This document shows, one piece after another, positions 4,913-61,991 of a stretch of 64,000 bases of DNA (positions within the stretch are counted from its first letter, which is position 1; every line of letters begins with the position of its first letter). This DNA is from Sideroxydans sp. (GTDB taxonomy: Bacteria > Pseudomonadota > Gammaproteobacteria > Burkholderiales > Gallionellaceae), in contig WOZO01000063.1 of the NCBI GenBank assembly GCA_011620315.1, forward strand, positions 7,968 to 71,967, given 5' to 3'. Both the position numbers and the translations under genes were made by a program. The notes under the pieces are model-generated. The model was not told where the DNA came from. It ran no database searches and saw only the letters and a program-made list of their open reading frames with translations.

Positions 4913-6319
4913 TCACGCTCCCAATTCAATGCCGGGCAGGGACGACTTCGCCCACGGCGCAGGTTTGCGCACGCCCGGCCACACCGGACTCTGTATCGTC
5001 AGCGCCAGTTGCCGCGCCAGTTCCACCATGCCGCTGTAACCCTCGTAACCGAATTCGCGTTCCTGATTGATGTCGAGGAAAGGGATGCGCGCCTTGAGCG
5101 CGGTGTACATGTTGCGACCGCCCGCGATGAGGATGTCCGCTTCGTATTCCTTCACCACGCCGAGCAGCGCCTTGGGGCTGCCGTCGGTGATCATCTTGGT
5201 CTTCTCGCCCATGATCTCGCGGATGCGCGCTTTGTCTTCCTCGGTGGATTTACTGGTGCCGGTGGCAACGACTTCCATGCCCAGGTCTTGCAGCGCGGAG
5301 ACGATGGACCACGACTTCACGCCGCCGGTGTATAGCAACACGCGCTTGCCGCGCAGGCGTTCGCGCCACGGTTCCAGCTCGGCGTTGATCTTCGCCTCTT
5401 CCCTCGCGATCATCGCTTCGGTGCGTTCGGTCAGAGAAGGATCGTTCAGCAGCTTGGCAAAATCGCGGAAGGCATTCGAGGTATCGGTCACGCCGTAGAA
5501 GCTGCCTTCGAAGAACGGCACCTTGTGATCGGTTTGCAGTTTGCGCGCGATGTTGAGCAAGGCTTTCGCGCACACCACCATGCTGGCTTCGGCGCGGTGC
5601 ATGGTCTGCACTTCGTGGAAGCGCGCATCGCCGGACAAGGTGCACAGGATGCGCAGCCCCAGTTCGTCGAACAACGGTGCCACGTTCCAGAACTCACCCG
5701 CGATGTTGTATTCGCCGATCAGGTTCACATCGTGCACGGTGATGCCTGGGCGCTGCAATTCATCAGGCACCGGCAAAGGTTCGCCCGTACCCACCACATA
5801 TTTGAACATCGCCTCACCCGCGATGCGGTTGCCCAGATTCTTGGTGCCGTAGAAACCGGCACAGTCCACCGGCACCACCGGCACGCCGGTCTTCTCGGCA
5901 GCGGCCTTGCACACCGCGCCGATGTCATCGCCGGTCAGCGCGGGCACGCAGGTGTTGTAGACGAACACCGCCTTGGGGGAATAGGAATCGACCGCCTGCT
6001 TGATTGCATGGAACAAACGCTTCTCGCCGCGCCCCATGATCACGTCCTGCTCGGTCAGATCGGTGGTCATACCGATGCGATACAAAGTCGGCCCGGAAGA
6101 GCGCGTGCCGCGGTTGTCCCACGAACTGCCCGCACAAGCGATCGGCCCGTGCACGATATGCGCGACGTCGGCGATAGGCAGCAAAGCGATCTGCGCCCCG
6201 TCGAACGAGCAGCCGCCCGCCGTCGCCCCGGGCTTGGGTCGCGCACAACCGGATTTCTCCTTCTTGTTATGCGCGCAGGCCGGTTCGTTCAGCAGTTCGG
6301 CGATGTCCTTGGCTTGCAT
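4913..6319 (-). CDS. nifE: Nitrogenase FeMo-co scaffold NifE
   Basis: [55 protein letters not shown]. Confidence 0.97.
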
Positions 6320-6354
6320 GGCAGTAGCTCACGAGTATTGACGCCCTCCTACTC

Positions 6355-6370
6355 GCAGGAAACATGCCAA
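6355..6370 (-). promoter_or_regulatory. sigma54 -24/-12 promoter of nifENX
   Basis: Minus strand TTGGCATGTTTCCTGC. Confidence 0.75.
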
Positions 6371-6413
6371 CCGACACATGGTTGATTTATTGGTAGTTTA
6401 TGGGGATGCGATT

Positions 6414-6429
6414 TGTAGGAAAGCATACA
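6414..6429. promoter_or_regulatory. NifA UAS (TGT-N10-ACA)
   Basis: TGT-AGGAAAGCAT-ACA upstream of the nifE sigma54 site. Confidence 0.7.
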
Positions 6430-6517
6430 ATGCGCACCCATCCAACAAATTCAACGCCCCGCTTGGCATGTCCAATATATTGGACACATTCATAAACCGC
6501 CCGTTAGCATCTCCGCC

Positions 6518-6999
6518 ATGTTGATCGACCTCAAAACCGCAGGCCAGCAGATACGCCACACGCGCCAACAGCTCGGCATCAGCCAGGCCGATGTGTCGCG
6601 CGCCACCATCGTCGGCCTTGAGAACGGCCCCCTCAACGAGATCGGCGTAATCCTGCTCAACCGCATCGTCGCCGCCAGCCGCATCGCGCAGCGACCCGTC
6701 GCAACCCCCGCCCCATCGCAACGCAAATCGGCAGACCTCAAACTGTCTTTCCCCTACGACTGGAGCAATCCCGCCATGAGCGACAGCGTGCTGATCGGCA
6801 AAGTGGTCGAGCGCGGTTTATTCGAAGACATGGCCAAGATCGCCGTGCGCTTCGGCGTCGCCTCCTGCGCCGCGCCGTCACCGCATTCACCACACGCAAC
6901 AGCGCCGCCGCGCCCGGCCTGACGCGCATGCTCGCCAACATCGAACAAGCCATACAACAAAACTCCCCTCCCCCGCTTGCGGGGGAGGGGAGAGGGTAG
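6518..6999 (+). pseudogene. XRE-HTH antitoxin (AbiE-type TA), frameshifted
   Basis: IRHTRQQLGISQADVSRATIVGLENG (HTH appears shortened). The expected C-terminus LRRAVTAF...RMLANIEQA is in another frame after ~6862. Confidence 0.6.
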
Positions 7000-7004
7000 C
7001 CATT

Positions 7005-7451
7005 ATGGAAAAGATCGCCATCAAGCCGGAATTCATGCCCGAACGCACCCGCCGCGTGTTTCAAGCGCTGGCGAAAGAACCGCTGATGCAAGGCTTTGTG
7101 TTGATCGGCGGCCCCGCGCTCTCGATACAACTCGGCCACCGCCTGAGCGAAGACCTGGACTTCTGGCTGCCCGCCGCCGCCATGTCCAAGGAACGCGTCG
7201 ATGCCATCCTCGACAAACTGGTCGCGCAAGGCATGCAGCAGAAATTCGCCATCCCGGCATGGAATATTTCGCAGGTGCGCATCAACGGCATCGACCTGCT
7301 CGCGCAAAGCCGCGACCACGTCGTCGACGGCGTGAAGATCACCTTCTTCGCGCGCGACGACACCCCCTACCACCACTTCGCCGCGATGAAACGCATCGCA
7401 GGCAAAGCAAAGTTCGACATCGGTAAGCGTCCAGCCGCCCCACCTGTTTGA
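7005..7451 (+). pseudogene. AbiEii/DUF1814 nucleotidyltransferase toxin, truncated by IS66 end
   Basis: FVLIGGPALSIQLGHRLSEDLDFW signature; similarity stops at GTAAGCGTCC (7423). Confidence 0.8.
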
Positions 7452-8600: not shown

Positions 8601-8669
8601 GACCGCGCAGTAACAAATATGTTATTGCCGGGCAATGTCTGCTCAAGAAGCAATAATTGGCACTCGACC

Positions 8670-8850
8670 TTATTTGACCAGCTTCGACACCTGCCTGAAC
8701 ACCTCAGCCCCCGCGATCTTGAGCCAATGGTACGCCACGGCCTCCGTGCTGGCAGGTACGGCTCCGGCGCAGGTCATGACTTCGAGGGCGGTGTCGCGGT
8801 TGGCGGCGGCGCGGCCCATCACGGCGTTTTCACGGTGTGCACGATGAAGC
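8670..8850 (-). pseudogene. 3' fragment duplicate of the isochorismatase-like gene at 12338
   Basis: EGFIVH...ANRDTALEVMTCAGAVPASTEAVAYHWLKIAGAEVFRQVSKLVK vs EGFVVH...ANRNTAIEAMTLAGAVPTGTETVAFQWLKVAGTDVFKQVSKLVK. Confidence 0.8.
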
Positions 8851-9038: not shown

Positions 9039-9890
9039 ATGCGCAATTTCGATCTCACGATTCCCCCTTCCAAGTCCACCTACGATGCGAAAGGCGCGTT
9101 GCAGTTTTTCGAGGCGGCGGGCGAAACAAAGTATGTGAAAGCAGGCAAGACGCTGTTCAAGGAGAACAGCCGTGCCAGCCCGCTGCTGCTGCAAAATGAC
9201 AAGATGTTTTACCTGCTGGAAGGCGCGGTGGAGCTGACGGCGAACGGTGAGACGGTTGGGCTGGTGCGCGCGGGCGAGTTGTTCGGCGAGATGACGCTAA
9301 TCACCGGCTTGCCTCGCACGGCGACGGCCAGGGCGAAAACGGATTGCCGACTCATCATGCTGGACAAGGAGCAGCTTCAGGCGGCGTTGCAGACTGCGCC
9401 CGAGTTCGCGCTGTTGCTGATGCACTTCATGATCGCGCGTTTACGCGACGCCATCGCACAGTTGAAATCGCAGGGGAACATGACCAGTGATGGGATGCTG
9501 AAAGACTCGGCCATCATCGACAAGAAACTACTGGATGATCTGGCAGACGAGTTCGACCGCAGTGCGCGCATACGTTGCCCGGAAGACAAGGTGATCATCC
9601 AAGAGGGGCAACCCGGCGTACTCATGTATGTGGTGCTGAAAGGCACGGTGGAGATCGCCATTCAGGGCAACACACTGGGCAAGATCGGGCCGGGCGGGAT
9701 GCTCGGCGAGATGGCGCTGATCTCGCGTACGGAGCGCCTTGCCAGTGCCACCGCCAAGACAGACTGCGAACTGCTATCCATCAACCGCGATGTGTTTCTG
9801 AAGATGGTGAGCGCGAATCCGAAGTTCGCCATCTCGCTGCTCGGTGCAGTCGGCCACCGCGCACACTTCATTGCGTCGATGCGAACTTGA
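9039..9890 (+). CDS. Tandem cNMP-binding (CAP_ED) domain protein, no HTH
   Basis: Two GE.FGEM.LI...R.A.A.AKTDC.L motifs; TTGACG-N16-GATAAT at 8955-8982 upstream. Confidence 0.85.
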   Translation: MRNFDLTIPPSKSTYDAKGALQFFEAAGETKYVKAGKTLFKENSRASPLLLQNDKMFYLLEGAVELTANGETVGLVRAGELFGEMTLITGLPRTATARAKTDCRLIMLDKEQLQAALQTAPEFALLLMHFMIARLRDAIAQLKSQGNMTSDGMLKDSAIIDKKLLDDLADEFDRSARIRCPEDKVIIQEGQPGVLMYVVLKGTVEIAIQGNTLGKIGPGGMLGEMALISRTERLASATAKTDCELLSINRDVFLKMVSANPKFAISLLGAVGHRAHFIASMRT

Positions 9891-12246: not shown

Positions 12247-12337
12247 GAGAGGGCGTCACCGAATAATTTCTCCGGCGCTTTCTCCTTGGTTCCGCCGCTC
12301 ATGGTTACCCCCAGAGATAACAGCCCTGCGCTTGGGC

Positions 12338-12904
12338 TTACTTCACCAGCTTCGACACCTGCTTGAACACATCCGTCCCCGCGACCTTGAGCCACTGGAA
12401 CGCCACTGTTTCGGTGCCGGTCGGCACGGCACCGGCAAGGGTCATGGCTTCGATAGCGGTATTGCGGTTGGCGGGGGCGCGGCTCAGCACGGCGTCTTGC
12501 ACAACATGCACGACGAAGCCTTCATGCAGCAGATCGAGCACGGTCTGTTGCACGCACACATGCGTCTCCATGCCGCACACCACGATCTGCGTGCGTCCAC
12601 TCTGGCGCAGTTGCGACAGGAAGTCGTCATTGCCGCAGCAGCTGAAGCTGATCTTTTCGTGGAAGGTGGCGTTGCCGGTTTTTTCCTTGAGCGCGGCGAC
12701 GGTGGGGCCGAGGCCTTTGACGTATTGCTCGGTGACGATGACGGGGACGGACAGCGCGTGTGCGCTTTCGAGCAGGATGCCGGCGTTCTTCACCACGCGC
12801 TGCAGTTCGTCCTGATCCATGGCGGCACTGAGGCGTTCCTGCACGTCGATGACCAGCAGCAGGGAGTGTGCGGCTTGCAGACGGAATTTGTCGGGGGTGG
12901 GCAT
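12338..12904 (-). CDS. Isochorismatase-family (cysteine) hydrolase
   Basis: LLVIDVQERL, TEQYVKGLGPTV, KISFSCC, VCGMETHVCVQQT. Confidence 0.92.
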   Translation of the reverse strand: MPTPDKFRLQAAHSLLLVIDVQERLSAAMDQDELQRVVKNAGILLESAHALSVPVIVTEQYVKGLGPTVAALKEKTGNATFHEKISFSCCGNDDFLSQLRQSGRTQIVVCGMETHVCVQQTVLDLLHEGFVVHVVQDAVLSRAPANRNTAIEAMTLAGAVPTGTETVAFQWLKVAGTDVFKQVSKLVK

Positions 12905-15431: not shown

Positions 15432-16502
15432 CTACATCAGCGCCACGCTCTTCACCTGTGCGCACACGTACATCCCCGCGACCAGGCCCAGATGGTCGCG
15501 CGAACGGCGCGTGATGCGCGACAGCAGCATATGCGACTCGCCCACCTGCATGCGCACGATCACCTTGTCCGGCCCCTCGTCGCGTATCTCTTCGATGCGC
15601 GCATTGAGGATGTTGTTGATGCTGGAGCCTTGCGGCGCCTGCGTGGCGATGCTCACGTCGCGTGCCAGCACGCGGGCACGCACGCGATAGCCTGCCGTCT
15701 GATCCACCTTGCCCACCCACAGGTGGCCGCCGGGGAAATCGAGCTGCGTCAGATGATAGGCCTCGTCGTGCCGCGCCACCGACGCTTCGATCACCGCGCC
15801 GGCGTCGTCGAAATGCGCGATGGGCAGGTCCAGCCGCGCCAGCGTCTCACCCAGCGCGCCGCTGGCGATGACCTTGCCCTGCTGCAGCAATACCAGATGG
15901 TCGGCCAGCCGCGCCACCTCGTCCATCGCATGGCTGACGTACAGAACGGGGATCTGCAGTTCGCGGTGCAGGCGTTCGAGGTAGGGCAGGATCTCCTGCT
16001 TGCTCTGCGTGTCGAGCGCGGACAGCGGCTCGTCCATCAGCAGCAGTTCGGGGCTGACCAGCAGCGCGCGGCCGATGGCGACGCGCTGGCGCTCACCGCC
16101 GGACAGGCTGGCCGGATCGCCGCGCCCGATGATGCGGTCCAGCCCCAGCCATTCGATCACTTGTTCCGGTTGCACGCGGCGTAGCGCAGGCGCGATGCGC
16201 CGGTAGCCGTATTCCAGATTGGCACGCACCGACAGGTGCGGGAACAGGCTGGCCTCCTGGAACACATAGCCCAGCGGCCGCTTGTGCACCGGCATGAAGG
16301 TCGTCTCGTTCTGCCACGGCTCGCCGTTCACGCGCAGCCAGCCCTGCGCGCGCTCCAGTCCGGCGATGCAGCGCAGCAGCGTGGTCTTGCCGGAACCGGA
16401 GGAGCCGAACAATGCGGTGACGCCGAGCGGCGGCGCGCTGAACTGGGCATCCAGTTCGAAGCTACCCTGCTGCATCTTGAGGTGTACGCGCAGCCAGCTC
16501 AT
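15432..16502 (-). CDS. modC: Molybdate ABC transporter ATPase
   Basis: [31 protein letters not shown]-terminal TOBE; ATG 16502. Confidence 0.95.
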
Positions 16503-17176
16503 CGCGCCCCCTTGGACCAATTGCCGCCCACGCGATACAGTCCGACCAGCACGAGGAAGGAGAACAGCACCATGCCGCCCGACAGCCAATGTGCCTCGCT
16601 GTATTCCATCGCCTCGACGTGGGTGTAGATGGCGACCGAGAGCACCTGCGTCTCGCCGGGGATGCTGCCGCCCAACATCAGCACCACGCCGAACTCGCCG
16701 ACCGTGTGCGCGAAGGCCAGGATGATGGCGGTGAGGAAACCGGGACGCGCCAATGGCAAGGCGACACTGATGAATCGATCCCACGGTGTCGCGCGCAGGG
16801 TAGCCGCCACTTCCAGCGGACGTTTGCCCATCGCCTCGAACGCGTTCTGTATCGGCTGCACCGCGAACGGCAGAGAGAACAGCACCGAGCCGACCACCAG
16901 TCCGGCGAAGGTGAACGGCAGTGCACCGATGCCGAGCGCGCGCGTCAATTCACCCACCGCGCCCTGCGGCCCCATCAGCAACAGCAGATAGAAGCCCAGC
17001 ACCGTCGGCGGCAGTACCAGCGGCAGCGCCACCAGCGCCGACACCAGTCCCTTGTACCAGCTGCGGCTGTGCGCCAGCCACCAGGCCAGCGGCGTGGCGA
17101 TGCACAGCAACACAAGCGTGGTGAGGCTCGCCAGCTTGAGTGTGAGTGTTACGGCTTGCAGGTCTTCGGGTGTCAC
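16499..17176 (-). CDS. modB: Molybdate ABC transporter permease
   Basis: [37 protein letters not shown]. Confidence 0.95.
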
Positions 17177-17204
17177 AATATTTTCCTTACTCTCTTTCTA
17201 CACC

Positions 17205-17384
17205 GTCATTGATGGAACTACTAGCCAATCCACTAAGCCAGCAAGCTGGCAAGTGGCTGGTTATCCCGCGCAGGCGGGAATCCAGCCATCAAAACAATTC
17301 CGCGAAGCGGACAACATGTTCTGGTTATGTCCCGCTGCGCGGGGAATGTTGAACCACTGGATTCCCGCCTGCGCGGGAATGACG
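17205..17384. repeat. REP doublet (GTCATTCCCGCGCAGGCGGGAATCCA family) interrupted by a 49-nt hairpin element at 17216-17264
   Basis: gtcatt[insert]cccgcgcaggcgggaatccag ... ctggattcccgcctgcgcgggaatgac. Confidence 0.85.
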
Positions 17385-17390
17385 GATCAA

Positions 17391-18143
17391 TCATGGCAGT
17401 TCGTAGCCGTAGCTGCGTATCACGGTTGCGGCCTGCGGGCCTTTGAGGAATGCGAGGAATGCTTTGGTCGCTTCGGTATCTTGTGCACTCGACAACATCA
17501 CGGCGCTCTGTTCGATGGGGTTGTAGTAGTGAGCCGGCACGATCCACCATGAACCTTCGCCCACCTTGCCGCCCTTGGTGATCTGCGACAGCGCGATGAA
17601 ACCCAGCTCCGCATTGCCGCTGGCGGCGAACTGATAGGTCTGTGTGATGTTGTCGCCTTTCACCAGTTTGGATTGCAGCACTTTCCACAGTCCCATTTCT
17701 TCCAGCGCTTCCTGCGCGGCGGTGCCGTACACCGCGAGCTTGGGATCGCCGATGGAAAGTTTGTTGTAGCCGCCTTTGCGCAGCACCGCGCCCTTGTCAT
17801 CCACCAAGCCCGGCTGCGCACTCCACAGCACCAGCTTGCCCAGCGCATATACGAAGCGCGAACCGTTCACTGTCAGACCGTCGCCATCCAGTTTCTTCGG
17901 CGTCCTGGTGTCGGCCGCGATGAATGCATCGTAGGGCGCGCCCTGTTTGATCTGCGCGTAGAACTTGCCGGTGGAGCCGAAGCTGACCGATACCTTGTGT
18001 CCGCTCGCCTGCTCGAACAGCGGCACGATCTCCTGCATCGGCGCGGTGAAGTTCGCCGCCACCGCCACGCGCACCTCGCCCGCCTGCGCCACTTGCGCCA
18101 TCATCAACAGCGCGCCCAACAAACCCAGTTTGATCGATTTCAT
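17391..18143 (-). CDS. modA: Molybdate-binding periplasmic protein
   Basis: VAVAANF, SFGSTGKFYAQIKQGAPYDAFIAAD, IGDPKLAVYGTAA. Confidence 0.95.
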   Translation of the reverse strand: MKSIKLGLLGALLMMAQVAQAGEVRVAVAANFTAPMQEIVPLFEQASGHKVSVSFGSTGKFYAQIKQGAPYDAFIAADTRTPKKLDGDGLTVNGSRFVYALGKLVLWSAQPGLVDDKGAVLRKGGYNKLSIGDPKLAVYGTAAQEALEEMGLWKVLQSKLVKGDNITQTYQFAASGNAELGFIALSQITKGGKVGEGSWWIVPAHYYNPIEQSAVMLSSAQDTEATKAFLAFLKGPQAATVIRSYGYELP

Positions 18144-18975: not shown

Positions 18976-19107
18976 GTTGTCCTCACTCGTAATCGAAAAT
19001 CTCGCCTAGCGACTCGTTCGCCCTTTCTCCCGCTTGCGGGAGAAAGTTGGAAAGGGGGAAGCGGGCATGGCAAGCCTCAAAATCATCCGTTTCACATGTG
19101 CCATGCC

Positions 19108-33824: not shown

Positions 33825-34538
33825 ATGATCATCATGCAGCCCACCGCCATGCACACCACCAAGACACCACCGCAGCCGGGCTCCCCCCTCTCTAACTCTG
33901 GTGAAACTACTAGCCATTCGACTAAGCCAGCAAGCTGGCAAGTCGCTGGTTATCTCCCGCAAGCGGGAGAAAGGACGAACGAGAAAGGCAATAGTCGATC
34001 CCCGGGCCTGTATGCGGAGTTGATGTCGCATGCGGCTGGGCTGCCCAATGATGAACTATTCGCACAACTGATCGCCAACCAGATCGCCGGCCTCGGCGCA
34101 TTGCCGCCCGGACTGGGGCTGGATGAAGAAGTGTTCGCGGCGCTGCTGTCGCGTCACTTCCCCAGCATGCAACTGGTGATACGTCGCAACGCGAATGCGT
34201 CCGACGAACGCGAACTGGAACACGAAGACGTGCGCGCGCTGATCCTAGAACATCGCGCCAACCTCGACGTCTCCGAAGTATGGATGGCAGAGATCGTCAC
34301 CACCGCCTGCATGGCGAGCGACCATCTGTGGCAAGACCTCGGCCTGTGGTCGCGCAAATACCTGACCCAGATGATGACGCAGAACTTCCCCACGCTGGCC
34401 GCGAAGAACAGCAAAGACATGAAGTGGAAGAAGTTCCTCTACAAGCAACTGTGCGAGAAAGAAGAGATCAGCATCTGCCGCTCACCGAGTTGCGAAGTGT
34501 GCATCGACTATCAGAAATGCTTCGGGCCGGAGGAGTGA
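33825..34538 (+). CDS. nifQ: Molybdenum donor NifQ (N-terminus extended by repeat DNA; start uncertain)
   Basis: DHLWQDLGL.SR..L..MM..NFP.LAAKN..DMKWKKFLYKQLC....CRSPSCEVC.DY..CFGPE. Confidence 0.93.
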   Translation: MIIMQPTAMHTTKTPPQPGSPLSNSGETTSHSTKPASWQVAGYLPQAGERTNEKGNSRSPGLYAELMSHAAGLPNDELFAQLIANQIAGLGALPPGLGLDEEVFAALLSRHFPSMQLVIRRNANASDERELEHEDVRALILEHRANLDVSEVWMAEIVTTACMASDHLWQDLGLWSRKYLTQMMTQNFPTLAAKNSKDMKWKKFLYKQLCEKEEISICRSPSCEVCIDYQKCFGPEE

Positions 34539-47972: not shown

Positions 47973-48049
47973 TGGTCGGAGCGAGAGGATTCGAACCTCC
48001 GACCCCTGCGTCCCGAACGCAGTGCTCTACCAGGCTGAGCCACGCTCCG
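47973..48049 (-). tRNA. tRNA-Pro (anticodon CGG)
   Basis: CGGAGCGTGGCTCAGCCTGGTAGAGCACTGCGTT-CGG-GACGCAGGGGTCGGAGGTTCGAATCCTCTCGCTCCGACCA, 77 nt, encoded CCA. Confidence 0.97.
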
Positions 48050-48073
48050 AAGTGATGCTGAACTACCTTGCTG

Positions 48074-49036
48074 CTAAAACTGTCGCGTTGCCGCGAAGCG
48101 CGCCAATTCTAACAGAGCGCGTTTGAATTGAGTATCCGCCAATGCAGAAATTGCGGCACATCCCGCCTCGGCTTCCAGCAACGCCTGTTGCCGCGTGAAT
48201 TCCAAAGCACCGGTCGCCTCGATGATGGCCTGCACCTCCGGCAGACGGGCCACATCACCCTCTTCAATGGCGGCGCGCACCACGGTGGCCTGCTCGGGTG
48301 TGCCGTGCTGCATGGCGTGGATCAGCGGCAGCGTCGGTTTGCCTTCGGCCAGATCGTCGCCCAGATGTTTACCGGTTTGCGCTTCGTCGGCGGAGTAGTC
48401 CAGTACGTCGTCGATCAACTGGAAGGCCGTGCCCAGATGCATGCCGTACTTCGCCACGGCCTCTTCTTCCGCCGCCGATGCCTTGCCGAGGATGGCCCCC
48501 AGACGCATCGCCGCCTCGAACAGCTTGGCCGTCTTGCAATGGATGACGCGCATGTAGTTCGCCACATCCACATCGGCGTCGTGACAGTTCAAGAGTTGCA
48601 ACACCTCGCCCTCGGCGATCACGTTGGTCGCGGCGGCCAACACCTCCATCACGCGCATCTCGCCCACGTCCACCATCATCTGGAACGCGCGGGTATATAA
48701 AAAGTCGCCCACCAGCACGCTGGCCGCGTTGCCGAACAGCGCATTGGCCGTCTCGCGCCCGCGACGCAGTTCGGATTCATCCACCACATCGTCGTGCAGC
48801 AAAGTCGCGGTATGGATGAACTCCACCACTGCCGCCAGATCATGGTGATGTGAGCCCTTGTAGCCAAAGGCCTGTGCGGACATCAGCACCAAAGCGGGAC
48901 GCAAACGCTTGCCGCCGCCGTTGACGATGTACTCGCCGACTTGGTTGACTAGCACCACTTCGGAATGCAGACGCGCGCGGATCACCGCATCGACTGCGGC
49001 CATGTCCGGCGCAAGCAACTCTTTCAGACTATCCAA
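48074..49036 (-). CDS. ispB: Octaprenyl-diphosphate synthase
   Basis: GGKRLRP, LLHDDVVDES.LRRG, KTA.LF, FQLIDDVLDY, DDLAEGK.TLP. Confidence 0.95.
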   Translation of the reverse strand: MDSLKELLAPDMAAVDAVIRARLHSEVVLVNQVGEYIVNGGGKRLRPALVLMSAQAFGYKGSHHHDLAAVVEFIHTATLLHDDVVDESELRRGRETANALFGNAASVLVGDFLYTRAFQMMVDVGEMRVMEVLAAATNVIAEGEVLQLLNCHDADVDVANYMRVIHCKTAKLFEAAMRLGAILGKASAAEEEAVAKYGMHLGTAFQLIDDVLDYSADEAQTGKHLGDDLAEGKPTLPLIHAMQHGTPEQATVVRAAIEEGDVARLPEVQAIIEATGALEFTRQQALLEAEAGCAAISALADTQFKRALLELARFAATRQF

Positions 49037-49234
49037 GAAACTCTCCTATCTGAACCGGCGCATAACGCGCTCTCTATAATGGGCGCGCATTGTCGCACAA
49101 TTATCCACAGGCGAAAAAGCCGAGCCGCCAACCACCGCACCGTCTCCCCCTTTATCAAAGGGGGAGCAAGGAGGATTTAAAATCGCGGCCCATCAACCTC
49201 TCCAACAACCACACACCAACACACCTCGGAATAA

Positions 49235-49252
49235 GTAGCACTCATGTGCTAC
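49235..49252. promoter_or_regulatory. Palindromic operator of TA operon
   Basis: GTAGCAC-TCAT-GTGCTAC just upstream of the RHH gene. Confidence 0.6.
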
Positions 49253-49286
49253 AGTAATCGCGCCCCTTCAAACCTCGGAGACAGCC

Positions 49287-49571
49287 ATGAGCACCACCAC
49301 CATACGTTTGCCTGAAGACCTGAAAGCACGCATTTCAGCAGCAGCCAAACGGGCCGGCACAACAACCCACGGTTTCATCCTTGAAGCCATCGCAGAAAAA
49401 GCCGAGCAGGAAGATCTGCGTGCCGCATTCGATGCAGAAGCAGAAGATCGTTATGCACGTATCGCCGCCACCGGCAAAACCATTCCCTGGCAGGAAATGC
49501 GCGGCTATCTGGATGATCGTCTTGCCGGTAAAGAAGTAAAACGCCCGACCGCCCGCAAACTGGCACGCTAA
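49287..49571 (+). CDS. Ribbon-helix-helix antitoxin
   Basis: TTTIRLPEDLKARI..AA...G.T.H.FILEAI.E...W.EM..YL. Confidence 0.88.
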   Translation: MSTTTIRLPEDLKARISAAAKRAGTTTHGFILEAIAEKAEQEDLRAAFDAEAEDRYARIAATGKTIPWQEMRGYLDDRLAGKEVKRPTARKLAR

Positions 49572-49573
49572 TC

Positions 49574-49870
49574 ATGGCGCGCATCGAACTGGCAGCGGAA
49601 GTCGGGGATGACTTTGATCGCATCCTCGATCACTTTTCCCAATATCAGGTCGAGAATCCGGCATTGCGCATTCGCGAGATCATCGAGGCATTCAACGTGC
49701 TGGAATACAACCCCATGATCGGCCGCCCCACAAACAACGACAAGCGAGAGCTGGTGATCGGGCAACGCTCGCACGGCTACGTGGCTTTGTACCGCTACGT
49801 GGCCGAAGTCGATACTGTCTTTATCCTTGCCGTGCGCAGCCAGCAGGAGGCCGGGGGTGCAGGGATTTAG
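49574..49870 (+). CDS. ParE/RelE-family toxin
   Basis: DFDRILDH...P.IGRP...RELVIG..SHGYVALYRY....V.ILAVRSQ.EAG. Confidence 0.88.
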   Translation: MARIELAAEVGDDFDRILDHFSQYQVENPALRIREIIEAFNVLEYNPMIGRPTNNDKRELVIGQRSHGYVALYRYVAEVDTVFILAVRSQQEAGGAGI

Positions 49871-49937
49871 ACGCTAGTGACATCAATTCAAGCCTTGGCT
49901 CCTGGGATTATGTGTTGGCATGCAGCCACTTAATTCT

Positions 49938-51905
49938 CTACTCATATTTTTTTCGCTGGCTTTCAGCCGTCTCGTTAGGATTGTTCAAATACGCAATCAA
50001 CTCTTCAAGAATAATCAAATCGCAAAGCTTTGCCCCAGACTCCAGATCATTCAATACATGCGTAACACCATGATATTGGCGCTGATCCGCATTCTCAGGC
50101 AACAACAATGAAGTTATGCCATAGCGCTCTTTGTAGGTATCGCCTGTGCTCCATGCCACAGACAAATCGATGTCTTTAATATTTTTGTCTTGGTTGTCTA
50201 CATCCTCAACCAAACCGTCAAGGCAGAGCTTGTACTCAAGAATGCGGGGGGGCGTTGTTTTTCCGTTAAGTGCATATGCGGTTTCCGAAGGGACACCTAA
50301 TGGATTCTCTTCCTTGTCGTATATATATAAATTGACATCCAAATCGAAGGAAATCTTAAAAAGTCCATCGTAGACGAAGCGTTCATTTGTTGACATCACA
50401 TTGATGCCTCGAATTACACCGCCAGCGATTAATTGATGAAAGAGTGCAATTACATCTTGCTCTCGCGTCGGCACAGATGTGATCGATACACGCTCAACAG
50501 GCTTGAAAAAATGGTGGTTTGTTAAGAGTAATGGGGCCGCAGTTTCATGAGCAAGCATCGCAGTCTTCCAGTCACTTATTTCAAGCTCCCTTACTAAGTC
50601 TGGTGCAACACCTGTGTTCGCTTTAAGAGAAGCGCGGAACTTTGACAAGTGAGACTCGGTTATCATTCGCGCAACGCTTTTTGCAAAATCTGCCAGTTCG
50701 CGGTGGAAACCTTTCCGCCCCAAGTCAGGGGTGTAATTATCAAAATGAACGAGAAAGTGAACTTGGTTTTGACGGCCAATATTTCTATTGAGGGGCACTT
50801 GAATTATTTCACCTTGAGGCATGTTATTCGCAGCAAGCTGAATGCCGCTTGTCAGAACCTTCCGGCCAGAACGTATACCCAAAGAATCGTTGAATCGGTT
50901 CCATAGTTTTGCGGTGTACCCAAATTCAACGCTAACTGTAGGTGTGTGATTCGCAATAACTTCACGCTCTTCATCGTCTAGCGCGACTCCAAGCAGAGCC
51001 TCTAATTCGCTGGAATTCCACGCGTCATATATAAAATCCAAATTCTTGTACTTGTCTGGCATTTTTCTGCCAGCGCCGAATTTCTTCAAAATGGTTTCTT
51101 GCTCATGTACTAACTCACGAAACGACGCTTTCTTCCCTGCGTCATCGTGCAACCAAAGATATGCAGTGCCCTGCGAAGATGCTTTAGTAATTTTGTTATT
51201 GAAACGAACCTTAATATTTACGTGTATTGCTTTGTCAGGAATGATTGAGCCTAACCCAGTCTTAATTGAAAGTATTTTCAACCACTTCTCGGCAGTATCG
51301 GCGCATAACCAACTCAATTGTTTTGGATGAGTGCTTTCGTCGAAGCGCACAGTAATAGAAACGCCCCGATCAGTACTTCCAAACGCAGGGTCGTCATGTT
51401 GTGATACGTCGGGCTCGACTTTTGGGCTACCACCAACAGCCCTATTTTTTATCCAGTTCCTGGCACCGACAATTCTTCCTGACACCTCAAAACCCGGGGC
51501 CTTGCTTGATATTCGCAAATAGTTAAATCCGTATGCAAGATAAGTCGCGCCAACACCTTTGTGACCGCGAGTATTGCCAGATTTGAACGAAAGGCTTGGT
51601 GCGAGAAATAGCTTGAATTGATCTTGATCTAATCCGATTCCGTTATCGGTAACAGTTAAAGTATTCTCATCTAAATCAACGAAAATATCGATAGTGGGTT
51701 TATAGACATCGCCTTTACCAGCTGCTTTCTCATTTTCAGCGCGTGCTTCCACAGCATCAAGCGCATTTTGAATTAGTTCACAGAATGGGTCATACCAGCC
51801 AACATAGGAACTGAGAATGTTCTCAATTTCTCTTTTGAGTATGTTGGTCGCATCGCTCAGGTTATTGTTTTTTGCGTCGAGTGGATCGAATGGCGTGAAG
51901 CTCAT
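49938..51905 (-). CDS. GHKL/MORC-type ATPase fused to putative PD-(D/E)xK nuclease domain
   Basis: ELIQNALDA, VTDNGIG, GHKGVG; C-terminal EQDVIALF...YDG...LEYK...VAW; AT-rich relative to flanks. Confidence 0.75.
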   Translation of the reverse strand: MSFTPFDPLDAKNNNLSDATNILKREIENILSSYVGWYDPFCELIQNALDAVEARAENEKAAGKGDVYKPTIDIFVDLDENTLTVTDNGIGLDQDQFKLFLAPSLSFKSGNTRGHKGVGATYLAYGFNYLRISSKAPGFEVSGRIVGARNWIKNRAVGGSPKVEPDVSQHDDPAFGSTDRGVSITVRFDESTHPKQLSWLCADTAEKWLKILSIKTGLGSIIPDKAIHVNIKVRFNNKITKASSQGTAYLWLHDDAGKKASFRELVHEQETILKKFGAGRKMPDKYKNLDFIYDAWNSSELEALLGVALDDEEREVIANHTPTVSVEFGYTAKLWNRFNDSLGIRSGRKVLTSGIQLAANNMPQGEIIQVPLNRNIGRQNQVHFLVHFDNYTPDLGRKGFHRELADFAKSVARMITESHLSKFRASLKANTGVAPDLVRELEISDWKTAMLAHETAAPLLLTNHHFFKPVERVSITSVPTREQDVIALFHQLIAGGVIRGINVMSTNERFVYDGLFKISFDLDVNLYIYDKEENPLGVPSETAYALNGKTTPPRILEYKLCLDGLVEDVDNQDKNIKDIDLSVAWSTGDTYKERYGITSLLLPENADQRQYHGVTHVLNDLESGAKLCDLIILEELIAYLNNPNETAESQRKKYE

Positions 51906-52066
51906 AATGCACCTCTATTAATCAATAGAAAATGAATGTACCTGAGTCAAACAAGTTTGACTATTCCAACCTCAGAATGAAATGGTGTCGGTGCCGCCTA
52001 CGCAATAAAGCTGCCAAAGGCCCGCAGCACATCGTGCAGCACGGACCTCATCCCGATAGCCTCGGG

Positions 52067-58962: not shown

Positions 58963-60279
58963 TTGCCGCGCATGGACGCAACCAGCACAGCCCCGCAAAC
59001 CACCCACCCGCCCGCCTTCCTTGGAAACTACCGTATCCTGCGCAAGATCGGGCACGGCGCGACCAGCGAAGTGTTCCTGGGATTCGACCCGTTCAACAAG
59101 CGCGAGGTCGCGATCAAGGTCATCAAACAATCTTTTCTTGAAGATTCGCGCAACGGTCGCCAGAACCGCAAACACCTGCAGAACGAGGCCACGCTGGCCG
59201 GCACGCTGAACCATCCGCACATCGTCGACATGTACGAGGCGGTGATCGGCGAGGACATCAGCTATATCGCCATGGAGTTCGTGCCCGGCGGCACGCTGGA
59301 ACAGCATATCCATTCCGACAATCTGCTGCCGCTGGATGCCGTGGTGGAGCGCATGTACGAATGCTGCCGCGCGCTCAACTACGCGCAATACAACGGCGTG
59401 ATCCACCGCGACATCAAACCGGCCAACCTGCTGCTGGACGAGAACGGCCAGATCAAGATCTCGGATCTCGGTGCCGCGGTACGCATGGACGTCGAGCAGA
59501 CGCAGAGCAATGTCGGTTCGCCAAACTATATGTCGCCGGAACAGGTGCGCGGCGAATCGCTGTCGCACCTGACCGACATCTATTCGCTGGGCGTGGTGAT
59601 GTACCGCCTGCTCACCGGCCACTCGCCCTACAGCCCGAAGAATCTGGCGCATCTGTACCAGCAGATCATGAACGAGATGCCGCCCATGCCCACCTCGCTG
59701 CGCAAAGACCTTCCGCCGCAACTGGAACGCATCGTGATGCGCGCCCTGCAAAAGCACCCGGCGGACCGCTACGCCAGCTGGCGCGAGTTCGGCGACGATC
59801 TGGCCGCACTGGGCCATTTCGAGAAGAGCGATCTGGAGGTGGCCGAGAACGAGAAATTCAATATCCTGCGCAAGATGAAGTTCTTCACCGACTTCAGTGA
59901 TCTGGAACTGTGGGAAGTGCTGCGCATCGCCGAATGGCATAAACAGCCGGAGAAAACCGTGCTGATGCGCGAGGACGAAATGAGCGACGCCGTCTATTTC
60001 ATCATCGACGGCAGCGTCAGCGTCACGCGCGGCACACGATTATTGATCGCGCTGCGCGGCGGCGACTGCTGCGGCGAGATGGCCTACATCCGCGGCAAGC
60101 AACTGCCGCGCTCGGCCACCGTCACCGCCAACACCGAAATCTCGGTGATGAAGCTCGACCCGCAGCAGCTCGCGCAGCTTTCCGACAGCTGCCAGAGCCA
60201 TTTCAACCAGGCTTTTCTATATGTGCTGGCGGAACGCCTGCGCCTGGCCGACGAGCGCATCGCGCGTCTGGTCAGTTAG
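58963..60279 (+). CDS. Ser/Thr protein kinase with C-terminal cNMP-binding domain (paralog 1)
   Basis: [42 protein letters not shown]; GEMAY...RSATV. Confidence 0.92.
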
Positions 60280-60311
60280 AATCTCGCCCTTACCAAACGG
60301 AGGAACGCCAC

Positions 60312-60698
60312 ATGGCACAAAAAACCATCATCCAAACGCCCGACGCGCCCGCCGCCATCGGCACCTACTCCCAGGCGGTGCGCGTCAACGATACCGTCTA
60401 CCTGTCCGGCCAGATCGGCCTCGACCCGGCCAGCATGCAGATGGTGGATGGCATCGAGGCGCAGGTGCACCGTGTGTTCCAGAACCTGCGCGCCGTCGCC
60501 AATGCCGTCGGCGGTAGCCTGGAAGACGTGGTCAAGCTCAACATCTTCCTCACCGACCTGGGCCATTTCGCCAAGGTCAACGAGATCATGGCCACCTATT
60601 TCCGCCAGCCCTACCCGGCGCGCGCCGCCGTCGGCGTCGCCAGTCTGCCGCGCGATGCGCTGGTGGAGGCGGACGGAGTGATCGTGCTAGGTGATTGA
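60312..60698 (+). CDS. ridA: RidA/YjgF-family deaminase
   Basis: [39 protein letters not shown]. Confidence 0.92.
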
Positions 60699-60710
60699 GA
60701 TGGAACAGCA

Positions 60711-61991
60711 GTGACACACCCAAAATCGATCGGCAAATACGCCATCCGGCAGGTCCTCGGGCACGGCACCACCAGCGTGGTCTATCGCGGTTTCGATCCC
60801 TTCGCCAACCGCGAAGTGGCGATCAAGGTACTGAAGCAGGAGATCCTCAACGACGCGCGCATGGGCAAGGCGTTCCGCCGCCAGCTCGACAATGAAGCGT
60901 CGCTGGTCGGCCGTCTGGAACACCCGCACATCGTTTCGATCTACGACGCGCTGATCAGCGACGGCGAGAGCTACATCGTGATGGAATACGTCAGCGGCGG
61001 CACGCTGGAAAAATTCACCGAACCGGACAGCCTGCTGCCCGTCGACCGCGTGATCGAGTACATGTTCAAGTGCTGCCGCGCGCTGAACTACGCGCAGTAC
61101 AACGGCGTCATCCACCGCGACATCAAGCCGGCCAACATGATGCTGACCGAGGACGGCGACATCAAGATCTCCGACATGGGTGCCGCCCTGCTGCTTGATC
61201 TGGAACAGACCCAGGTCAGCAACCTCGGTTCGCCCAACTACATGTCTCCGGAGCAACTGGGCGGTGAAACCCTCACCCACCAGACCGACATCTACTCGCT
61301 GGGCGTGGTGATGTATCGTTTGCTGTGCGGGCAGGCGCCCTACCGCGCGCAAAGTCTGGCCAGCCTGTGCCACCAGATCCTCAATACGCCGCCCGCGCCG
61401 CTGCGCACCTATTGCGCAGACATCCCGCCAGAGCTGGAGCAGATCGTGGCGCGCGCGATGCAGAAAGACAAAAGCCTGCGCTACCAGAACTGGCGCGACT
61501 TCGGCAACGACCTCGCGGCGCTGGGCCACTACAAACATTCCGATCCCGCCGTCAACCAGACGGAAAAATTCACCACGCTGCGCGGCATGTCGCTGTTCAG
61601 TGATTTTTCCGATACCGAACTGTGGGAGATCCTGCGCATCGGCGAATGGCAGAAGCGACCGGCGCAGACCGTGCTGATGCGCGAGGACGAGCTGGGCGAC
61701 GATTTTTACATCATGATCAGCGGCACGGTGAACATCACCAAGAACGGCTACCTGCTCAACCTGATCAGCCGCGACGATTGCTTCGGCGAGATGGCCTACA
61801 TCAGCGGCCGCGTCGTGCATCGCTCGGCCACCGTCACGGCCGGCACCGATGTGACGGTGATGAAAATCGCGCCAAAATTGCTGAACGAATTGTCCGACCA
61901 CTGCCAGCTGCATTTCAATCAGGCCTTCCTGCGCGTGATGGCCGACCGGCTGCGCATGGCCGATTCGCGCTTCGCCAAACTGGCCAGCTAG
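60711..61991 (+). CDS. Ser/Thr protein kinase with C-terminal cNMP-binding domain (paralog 2)
   Basis: [37 protein letters not shown]; FGEMAY...RSATV. Confidence 0.92.
   Translation: MTHPKSIGKYAIRQVLGHGTTSVVYRGFDPFANREVAIKVLKQEILNDARMGKAFRRQLDNEASLVGRLEHPHIVSIYDALISDGESYIVMEYVSGGTLEKFTEPDSLLPVDRVIEYMFKCCRALNYAQYNGVIHRDIKPANMMLTEDGDIKISDMGAALLLDLEQTQVSNLGSPNYMSPEQLGGETLTHQTDIYSLGVVMYRLLCGQAPYRAQSLASLCHQILNTPPAPLRTYCADIPPELEQIVARAMQKDKSLRYQNWRDFGNDLAALGHYKHSDPAVNQTEKFTTLRGMSLFSDFSDTELWEILRIGEWQKRPAQTVLMREDELGDDFYIMISGTVNITKNGYLLNLISRDDCFGEMAYISGRVVHRSATVTAGTDVTVMKIAPKLLNELSDHCQLHFNQAFLRVMADRLRMADSRFAKLAS

Follow-up and report, generated by a model that had tools for sequence, protein, structure and literature searches.

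A 54-nt hairpin-forming DNA element, very probably mobile, nested in palindromic repeats of Sideroxydans and other Gallionellaceae

The stretch of DNA analysed here (the window) comprises 64,000 nucleotides of Sideroxydans sp. (GenBank assembly GCA_011620315.1, contig WOZO01000063.1, positions 7,968 to 71,967 of the forward strand), which searches with its ModB and NifQ proteins also place in the Gallionellaceae. It holds two copies of a short hairpin-forming element, one between the molybdate transport genes modB and modA and the other within nifQ. The original prediction, made from the sequence alone, had described them as 49-nt hairpins with three differences, and both 49-mers were indeed found on the + strand, at 17216-17264 and 33905-33953, with 3 mismatches between them and 0 matches expected by chance in a shuffled window. 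The length given for the unit proved too short on the 5' side. Repeat finding and a covariance model both place its start six bases 5' of that of the 49-mer, which gives a repeated unit of 54 nt at 17210-17263 and 33899-33952 (+ strand); the model aligns end to end with 17210-17264 and 33899-33953 at about 87 bits each, and the comparison of empty and filled sites fixes the unit at 54 nt, TGRTG...GGTTA, with one ambiguous T. No third copy was found in the window by the covariance model with its filters off. The two copies and their parts are as follows.

17210-17263, + strand: element copy 1 (model match of 87.5 bits over model positions 1-55, fold, and boundaries from empty and filled sites)
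17210-17221 and 17222-17263, + strand: 5' tail (TGATGGAACTAC) and hairpin of copy 1, with outer stem TAGCCA/TGGTTA including a G.T wobble, middle stem CCACT/AGTGG and tip GCCAG-CAAG-CTGGC
17264, + strand: T assignable to copy 1 or to its target
33899-33952, + strand: element copy 2, CGACT/AGTCG subfamily (model match of 86.8 bits)
33953, + strand: ambiguous T, of copy 2 or of its target

The element consists of a 12-nt 5' tail (TGRTGRAACNAC) followed by a 42-nt hairpin in three tiers, namely a 6-bp outer stem with a conserved G.T wobble, a 5-bp middle stem set off by a 2+1-nt internal loop and, above an AA/A bulge, a tip helix of variable sequence. The bases adjoining the stem on its 5' side read (A/T/G/C)AC, and variants with a long loop measure 60 nt. 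The folds predicted for the two copies reach -20.2 and -19.6 kcal/mol (z about -3.4). One of the three mismatches (17228/33917, A/T) falls in the internal loop, and the other two (17231/33920, C/G, and 17255/33944, G/C) pair with each other in the predicted hairpin.

Copy 1 lies in a cluster of repetitive extragenic palindromes (REPs), antisense to the mod operon, with modE just past modA.

16499-17176, - strand: modB, molybdate ABC permease
17177-17390, strand unassigned: lineage-specific cluster of 3-4 REP-like hairpins, with copy 1, between modB and modA
17203-17209, + strand: left part (CCGTCAT) of the CGTC-type REP split by copy 1
17264-17285, + strand: right part (TCCCGCGCAGGCGGGAATCCAG) of the same REP
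17391-18143, - strand: modA, molybdate-binding protein

The claim that copy 1 splits a REP was borne out. The element interrupts it as GTCAT^T^CCCGCGCAGGCGGGAATCCAG, the rejoined flanks reading CCGTCAT-T-CCCGCGCAGGCGGGAATCCAG, and joining 17203-17209 to 17264-17285 restores CCGTCATTCCCGCGCAGGCGGGAATCCAG, the consensus of a CGTC-type REP (here of the form ATTCCC-N8-GGGAAT) found intact at six other sites of the window, 17361-17383(-), 19612, 27329, 34862(-), 38827 and 38871(-). In relatives with a 93-95% identical ModB, modA and modB overlap by 4 bp, without intergenic DNA, and in the window the two genes are instead separated by about 214 bp of REP-like hairpins, the element lying in one of these. 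The cluster at 17177-17390 thus takes the place of the 4-bp stop/start overlap of the relatives; ModA of the window is five residues shorter at its end, and modB now starts with GTG behind a new AAGGA.

Copy 2 lies within a gene and within a second repeat.

33825-34538, + strand: nifQ open reading frame (ORF) of 237 aa (Pfam PF04891, E = 3e-57; aligned with homologues of 193-216 aa)
33880-33898, + strand: left part (GCTCCCCCCTCTCTAACTC) of a palindromic host repeat of about 70 nt, in frame in nifQ
33953-34005, + strand: right part (TCTCCCGCAAGCGGGAGAAAGGACGAACGAGAAAGGCAAT...) of the host repeat, the element abutting the 5' foot of its palindrome

The prediction had put this copy in the 5' region of nifQ, splitting a palindrome. 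The gene was right, the copy being precisely inside its coding sequence and in frame; as to the palindrome, the element lies immediately 5' of TCTCCCGCAAGCGGGAGA, at its foot, inside the repeat of about 70 nt. It contributes 18 codons (GETTSHSTKPASWQVAGY) to the N-terminal, non-domain part of the protein, and together the two nested inserts lengthen the protein by 41 residues, all N-terminal to the NifQ domain (residues 79-234), while the start of the protein, MIIMQPT, matches that of the closest homologue. A paralogue of the host repeat without the element lies at 18976-19095(-), and a similar repeat at 6962-7005(-). The repeat family reads CCCCTCTCTCTAACTC-TCTCCCGCAAGCGGGAGAAAGGRCGAACGAG... 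and is in frame in nifQ of two related loci (L129 and L130) and of the window, and absent from a third (L131).

Evidence of mobility comes from sites that are empty in one genome and filled in another. NifQ homologues fall into three classes, those without insert (P0121 and others), those with an insert of 23 residues (P0123, P0146), and the window, which has that insert plus 18 residues. In DNA alignment the empty site of L130 reads ...CTCTCTAACTC|TCTCCCGCAAGCGGGAGAAAGG... and the filled site of the window ...CTCTAACTC(TGGTGAAAC...GCTGGTTA)TCTCCCGCAAGCGGGAGAAAGG..., with the element in brackets, so that from L129 and L130 to the window exactly 54 nt are gained, one T being assignable to either side, with no duplication. 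The locus L131 is doubly empty, without host repeat and without element, and the window therefore shows two nested insertions in one gene, the element in the host repeat and the host repeat in nifQ, each of which keeps the frame. A second pair of sites concerns a 60-nt long-loop variant (empty ACGTTAC|TGGCG, filled ACGTTAC(TGATGAAAC...GGTTA)TGGCG), and both exact comparisons give the same boundaries, no target-site duplication of 2 bp or more and one ambiguous T. Element copies were also found inside element copies, at ACT^AGCCA and ACT^AAGCC; in a triple nesting at locus L007 a canonical outer copy is restored once the two inner copies are removed. No copy was found in the modB and nifQ loci of relatives. 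The flanks of copies 1 and 2 are unrelated in sequence, and consequently the two do not derive from one segmental duplication. The proposed mobility is thus upheld by two exact empty and filled pairs, by self-nesting that restores canonical copies and by absence from close relatives at both sites, and we consider it very probable that the element is a structure-dependent mobile DNA element.

The element lands, in a fixed orientation, preferentially at the 5' foot of other hairpin-forming repeats or in their loops. In CGTC-type REPs the element enters the 5' arm, always as GTCAT^T^CCSGCG and in a single orientation, in about 19 independent contexts; it also enters further copies of itself, the loops of REPs (at CCCGCC^T^GCGCGG and, in GTAG REPs, at GCC C^T^GC) and CCCTC...GGGAGAGGG palindromes, in the last case at their 5' foot. 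The predicted targeting of REPs accordingly holds, and extends to REP loops and other palindromes. The base preceding the element is C in 27, T in 9, A in 4 and G in 0 of a first set of 40 contexts, and C in 43, T in 10, A in 1 and G in 0 of a second set of 54; in the pooled 94 distinct contexts C precedes the element 70 times, T 19 times and A 5 times, and G never does. Of these contexts, 80/94 have a pyrimidine at position -3, and the base past the shared T is rarely T. Conservation of the left flank is limited to YNC, the left junction being mostly C|T and the right one A|T. Rfam searches of 18 loci revealed no known structured RNA at the insertion sites. With a length that is a multiple of three and three of its six frames free of stops, the element also has in-frame copies in two further genes, one for GlnE and one for a UvrD/PD-(D/E)XK (UvrD/AddA-like) helicase-nuclease. 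The first of these copies lies near the N-terminus of the GlnE adenylyltransferase gene (L035:4135-6996(+)), and the second between the N- and C-terminal helicase domains, inside a CCCTC...GGGAG repeat (L060:523-3351(-)). In six loci one copy rides as a passenger in a miniature inverted-repeat transposable element (MITE) of about 180 nt. The ends of this MITE are inverted (CTCTAAAAATTCAAAGTTC ... GAAATTTGGATTTTTAGAG) with the element copy near the left one; the loci are L016:2240-2420, L029, L030, L045, L107 and L109, two of them from one genome, and L109 is internally deleted.

That the element depends on its structure, as predicted, is supported by covariation in two independent samples and by an unbiased scan with free pairs. 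Standard pairs fill 97.8% and 98.2% of the cells in two alignments, against 88-90% after shuffling and at most 40% with slid partners; double changes occur in 11 and 7 of 16 pairs, and 0/500 shuffles reach the observed values. Since both alignments had been fitted to the covariance model, evidence independent of it was sought. Tips anchored on the conserved flanks only are unrelated in sequence and all paired (GCCAGC/GCTGGC, GCAACC/GGTTGC, GGCTATC/GATAGCC, GGCCGTC/GACGGCC, GGCTGCG/CGCAGCC, GCCCC/GGGGC). Likewise, in a metagenome scan that left two tip pairs free (N) and the middle pair as S, the tips among the 121 matches listed were CC/GG in 85, CA/TG in 33 and non-complementary in 3, and the middle pair was complementary in 121/121 of these matches. 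The middle stem is dimorphic across the family, CCACT/AGTGG or CGACT/AGTCG, with a third state TGACT/AGTCA; the two differences between the window copies that had been read as a compensatory pair are therefore indeed paired, C:G against G:C, but reflect this family-wide dimorphism and not a local event. The outer-stem wobble persists in 58/74 and 84/90 distinct sequences, the remainder having only A-T or G-C. A G.T wobble becomes an A.C mismatch on the opposite strand, which gives the folded strand a polarity, and its retention favours a folded single strand of defined polarity. Selection thus acts on the hairpin. The 5' tail was also examined for covariation with the flank of the target, and the signals, confounded by subfamilies, were not used.

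The family is large. A scan of genomes, one per species, with the 20-nt tip as query gave more than 120 loci among the matches listed, and a metagenome scan likewise gave more than 120 among those listed. The covariance model (R1) recovered at least 104 copies in 589 kb of genome loci and at least 123 in 622 kb of metagenome loci, in all more than 240 copies in about 1.3 Mb of loci from Gallionellaceae/Nitrosomonadales genomes and metagenomes. Most of the listed genome matches belong to Gallionella, Sideroxydans, Sideroxyarcus and other metagenome-assembled genomes of Nitrosomonadales, with the unit CTGATGRAACNACTAGCCAWTCSACTAAGCCAGCAAGCTGGCAAGTSGCTGGTTAT. In a sequencing run of a relative (X4), 28 contigs match the stretch around copy 2, the listed pieces covering the whole element, and the summed word depth on the element is about 560-700 as compared with about 6-7.5 for single-copy sequence; the ratio of roughly 90 suggests, as an approximate guide, between tens and about a hundred copies in each genome. 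The outcomes named beforehand as contrary to the original prediction were the existence of only these two copies, and other copies without REP targeting or covariation; what was found is a family of this size with both.

Methylotenera has a homologous 51-nt form in head-to-tail arrays, and the Sphingomonadaceae, Sphingopyxis included, have in common only a 25-nt core (GACTAAGCCAGCAAGCTGGCAAGTC) wedged between other palindromes. Methylotenera loci L044:5705-5910 and L054:2153-2204 hold four 51-nt hairpin units (CATAAAACTGATAAGCAYTACTAAGCCAGCAAGCTGGCAAGTATTGCTAAC) in array, and such arrays lie between convergent genes, just past a hairpin resembling an intrinsic terminator. A copy of this type was also found in a 38-kb IMG/VR contig classed as viral (L132:7105-7155, with a weaker second match at 9539-9565), a possible route of spread between hosts. 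The core is exact in the Sphingomonadaceae loci L004, L012, L015, L019, L062:1313-1337 and about 40 others, where the outer stem is different (GCTGC...GCTGC) and the core lies between CCCCACCC and CCCTCCCC..GGGGAGGG palindromes. The plasmid collection held no match to the element. At the gathering threshold Rfam 15 found only a tRNA in the window, and the region of the element (17150-17420) had no match at E <= 10. In a literature search neither a report of the core sequence nor, among the REP surveys consulted, a mention of these taxa was found. The hairpin element of these iron-oxidising Gallionellaceae is previously undescribed and in kind belongs with the REP/REPIN-like non-autonomous hairpin elements, REPINs being pairs of inverted REPs that fold into a long hairpin.

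Regarding the enzyme involved, half-site searches in the same 1.3 Mb for an autonomous version with the same ends gave only nested copies, and clustering of ORFs gave no recurrent neighbour gene, only GGDEF/EAL, ABC and LysR paralogues; the mobilising enzyme would therefore have to act in trans. We hypothesize that the element moves as folded single-stranded DNA, and that a Y1 HUH enzyme of the RAYT (REP-associated tyrosine transposase)/TnpA_REP type, supplied in trans, cuts and rejoins it 5' of T. The hairpin, wobble, bulges and 5' tail would stand in for the imperfect REP hairpin and the 5' tag on which TnpA_REP acts, and REPs would be hit since such enzymes bind and nick there and since DNA may extrude there as hairpins. 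RAYT genes are present in these genomes. This type of enzyme is favoured, in the first place, because the folded strand that appears to be selected has what TnpA_REP needs, an imperfect hairpin with a mismatch and bulges and a single-stranded 5' motif (PMC8266576). Secondly, E. coli TnpA_REP cuts single-stranded DNA at C|T, one of its sites being TGCC|TGAT (PMC3333891), which matches the targets and the left junction of the element, C|TGATG. Thirdly, REPINs occur in tandem clusters and insert into one another, as the element nests in itself, and their putative transposition intermediates combine a hairpin with a single-stranded 5' tail (PMC3116915). Finally, an enzyme that binds and nicks REPs would explain the preference for REPs.

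Several observations weigh against such an enzyme. The element has neither a GTAG nor a CGTC tag; its right-end junction is A|T and not C|T; and it forms a single hairpin, unlike the two-hairpin substrates of IS200/IS605 and the REPIN doublets. IS608-type elements favour the lagging-strand template, and the orientation of the element relative to local GC skew showed no bias (28 vs 30 loci), the skew over 8 kb being a weak proxy. No excision joints were seen in four metagenome runs, in contigs (Logan) that drop rare variants. Moreover, a transposase gene flanked by the same ends, which the original prediction had suggested looking for, was not found, no Y1 gene being flanked by the element in about 1.3 Mb around some 240 copies. 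Only three Y1 HUH genes occur there, 2-6 kb from copies and each with partners of its own, and in the loci examined none of the three forms, together with the element, a REPtron (a RAYT gene flanked by its cognate repeat). The RAYT gene of L039 is flanked by its own GTAG REPs (GTAGGAGCGCGCCCTGCGCGCGA), that of L190 has its nearest element copy 5.7 kb away, and a TIRYT-type gene (L051/P0242), with GGGGTCAGGTCTTGCA inverted repeats at its borders, has no copy of the element in the 6 kb around it. Taken together, we give a probability of about 0.5 to the whole explanation, a 54-nt non-autonomous hairpin element moved as a single strand by an HUH enzyme acting in trans, and regard the assignment of that enzyme to the HUH/RAYT type as tentative, its odds falling slightly below even. 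More doubtful still is the idea of a parasite of REPs, in which the element, as a minimal substrate with one hairpin, would hijack resident RAYT/TnpA_REP enzymes.

Two of these Y1 genes deserve a separate remark. At L039:859-2019 a stop-free frame spans a lipoyl(octanoyl) transferase (LplA-B_cat), a GTAG REP and the RAYT (Y1_Tnp). The TIRYT-like protein (279 aa, Y1_Tnp with a C-terminal helix-turn-helix; L134-L140, gene 6001-6840, and L051:2-724) is 94-96% identical across many Gallionellaceae samples in varied contexts, its gene is bounded by the inverted repeats GGGGTCAGGTCTTGCA / TGCAAGACCTGACCCC, and contigs end just past it. It seems to represent an element that is active, or was so until recently, and that has no relation to the hairpin family.

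Among alternative enzymes, those of the IS110/IS1111 family are known to insert into REPs in one orientation and without duplicating the target, and in Neisseria, Pseudomonas and E. coli dRS3/REP sequences serve as targets of IS110-type enzymes. A DEDD recombinase of this family, acting in trans and recognising the joined ends of the element, would agree with the form of the CGTC REP, with the fixed orientation and precise junctions with an overlap of just 1 nt, and with insertions into REP loops at CC^TGC; REP-targeting IS elements are also on record in the background section of PMC3733652. Nevertheless, those insertion sequences are kb-sized and autonomous with one specific target, whereas the element has 54 nt, in which a bridge RNA cannot be encoded, and at least 90 distinct target contexts whose consensus is just YNC|T, too diverse for one target of about 10 nt. 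Furthermore, the overlap is a single T, with no CT core at both ends, the right end being A|T, and no core dinucleotide is common to both junctions; no IS110-like gene recurs near the copies; and the covariation of the hairpin, G.T wobble included, is not needed by an IS110 mechanism. Insertion at C|T, and a range of targets too diverse for one sequence-guided target, agree better with an HUH/RAYT-type enzyme than with IS110, and we regard an IS110-type recombinase as improbable.

Somewhat less probable again is a folded single-strand site for a tyrosine recombinase, of the kind seen in integron attC or CTX attP. The element resembles attC in its layered imperfect hairpin, with an outer box, an unpaired 2+1 spacer, an inner box, bulged bases and a variable tip of 14-20 nt, and in that structure outweighs sequence. 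However, RYYYAAC/GTTRRRY boxes are missing, the ends reading ...GRAAC-NAC-TAGCCA and TGGTTA|T, and the crossover position differs, being C|T and not G|TT, and for these two reasons an integron-like site can be set aside; in addition, copies are dispersed singly in REPs and genes and not in cassette arrays, and no attC-like Rfam match was obtained at E <= 10.

An ordinary MITE, in which the arms would be terminal inverted repeats bound double-stranded by a DDE transposase and the covariation would reflect two ends matching one protein, is very improbable. Although the arms do form inverted repeats of about 18 nt around an interior tip that varies as in IS deletion derivatives, the two exactly defined insertions lack a target-site duplication of 2 bp or more and the 12-nt 5' tail lies outside the inverted repeat without an inverted counterpart, and it is the lack of duplication and the asymmetric tail that speak against DDE transposition. 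Double-strand recognition also leaves the conserved G.T mismatch, the asymmetric bulges and the freely covarying tips unexplained, and no longer element with the same ends was found in the 1.3 Mb.

Lastly, an immobile functional RNA or protein-binding hairpin (an mRNA stabiliser, processing site or regulator) carried as a passenger of other repeats would be in line with the conserved structure, with the molybdenum-related genes (modABC, nifQ) adjoining both window copies and with the copy borne by the MITE of about 180 nt, but this view, equally improbable, is already largely refuted by the presence or absence of exactly 54 nt in an otherwise identical host repeat, and is contradicted by both orientations to transcription (antisense in modAB, sense in nifQ), by in-frame copies in nifQ, glnE and the UvrD/AddA-like gene and copies within copies, and by unrelated neighbour genes across loci and the lack of an Rfam family match.

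Two specific RNA candidates were also discarded. A molybdenum-linked regulatory RNA found no support, with no match to the Moco or any other riboswitch, opposite orientations to transcription and unrelated genes elsewhere; and a hammerhead-like reading of CUGAUGA...GAAAC lacked a conserved GAAA/stem III and an Rfam match.

Compared with known systems, the element comes closest to REPs and REPINs (the REPINs of P. fluorescens SBW25, REP and BIME of E. coli), with which it shares being short, multi-copy, non-autonomous and hairpin-forming, with an imperfect stem carrying a mismatch or bulge and a conserved single-stranded 5' motif. What defines a REP is a conserved tetranucleotide, GTAG or CGTC, at the 5' foot of the palindrome (PMC3733652), and the 5' tail TGRTGRAACNAC has neither. 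As for REPINs, the long hairpin with a 12-nt 5' tail fits, but the arms are not palindromic REPs and no linked RAYT was found: the element is one 42-nt hairpin and not a doublet of short palindromes, is sharply bounded at 54 nt with insertions readable to the base, and resides inside REPs. It recalls IS200/IS605 in lacking target duplication, in its asymmetric ends and subterminal hairpin and in a single-strand logic. However, those elements have left and right hairpins, tnpA/tnpB and insertion 3' of a fixed 4-5-nt target, while the element has one hairpin, no conserved 4-5-nt target but YNC|T, no gene and no detected strand bias. It does not qualify as a DDE MITE, an integron attC or a member of an Rfam 15 family.

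Among the Rickettsia palindromic elements (RPE), RPE-1 is roughly 100-150 nt long, as against 54 nt here. RPE and intragenic REPs insert palindromes in frame in functional genes, including DNA-repair genes (PMC3733652). The copies in nifQ, glnE and the UvrD/AddA-like helicase resemble them in this, and differ in sequence, size and host lineage and in that the intragenic copies are nested in a second repeat. The cyanobacterial small dispersed repeats (SDRs) of Elhai and co-workers (2008) are reported to be tiny mobile repeats, nested in each other and in repeats of other kinds with hairpin potential kept, and shorter than the element. They belong to another phylum, and their sequence is probably unrelated to it; SDRs are named in PMC3116915.

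The family bears on how REP-type repeats multiply. Cleavage and strand transfer by RAYT have been shown in vitro, but clean natural insertions are scarce. The present family supplies such insertions, with a 54-nt unit whose boundaries are exact to the base, with empty sites at orthologous positions and with independent targets by the dozen. These suggest that the cut is made on the 5' side of a T (mostly C|T) at the feet and loops of hairpins, and a layered hairpin with a free tip appears to be what selection maintains. Such elements can nest in repeats and sit in frame in genes of essential pathways (nifQ, glnE, a RecB/AddA-like helicase) apparently without destroying them. If the element is indeed a parasite of REPs that uses their enzymes, its empty and filled sites, precise to the base, would document for the first time in nature RAYT-type C|T cleavage followed by integration; the spread of REP-like sequences could be tested directly with a 54-nt oligonucleotide; and the identical 25-nt core in alpha- and betaproteobacterial repeats would represent a recognition module shared or exchanged across classes. 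In practical terms, the element is a source of spurious ORF extensions and assembly breaks, and of strain-level markers, in Gallionellaceae genomes.

Elsewhere in the window, a tRNA gene at 47976-48049(-) adjoins the stretch of lowest GC content, 48001-52000 (0.51 vs about 0.60 elsewhere), which may be acquired DNA and includes a 655-aa ORF whose sole match, to HATPase_c, is weak. Two diverged pairs of direct repeats, 59166-61738 and 8660-8830 / 12328-12498, with 70-80% identity and spacings of 1.7 kb and 3.7 kb, resemble segments of paralogous genes.

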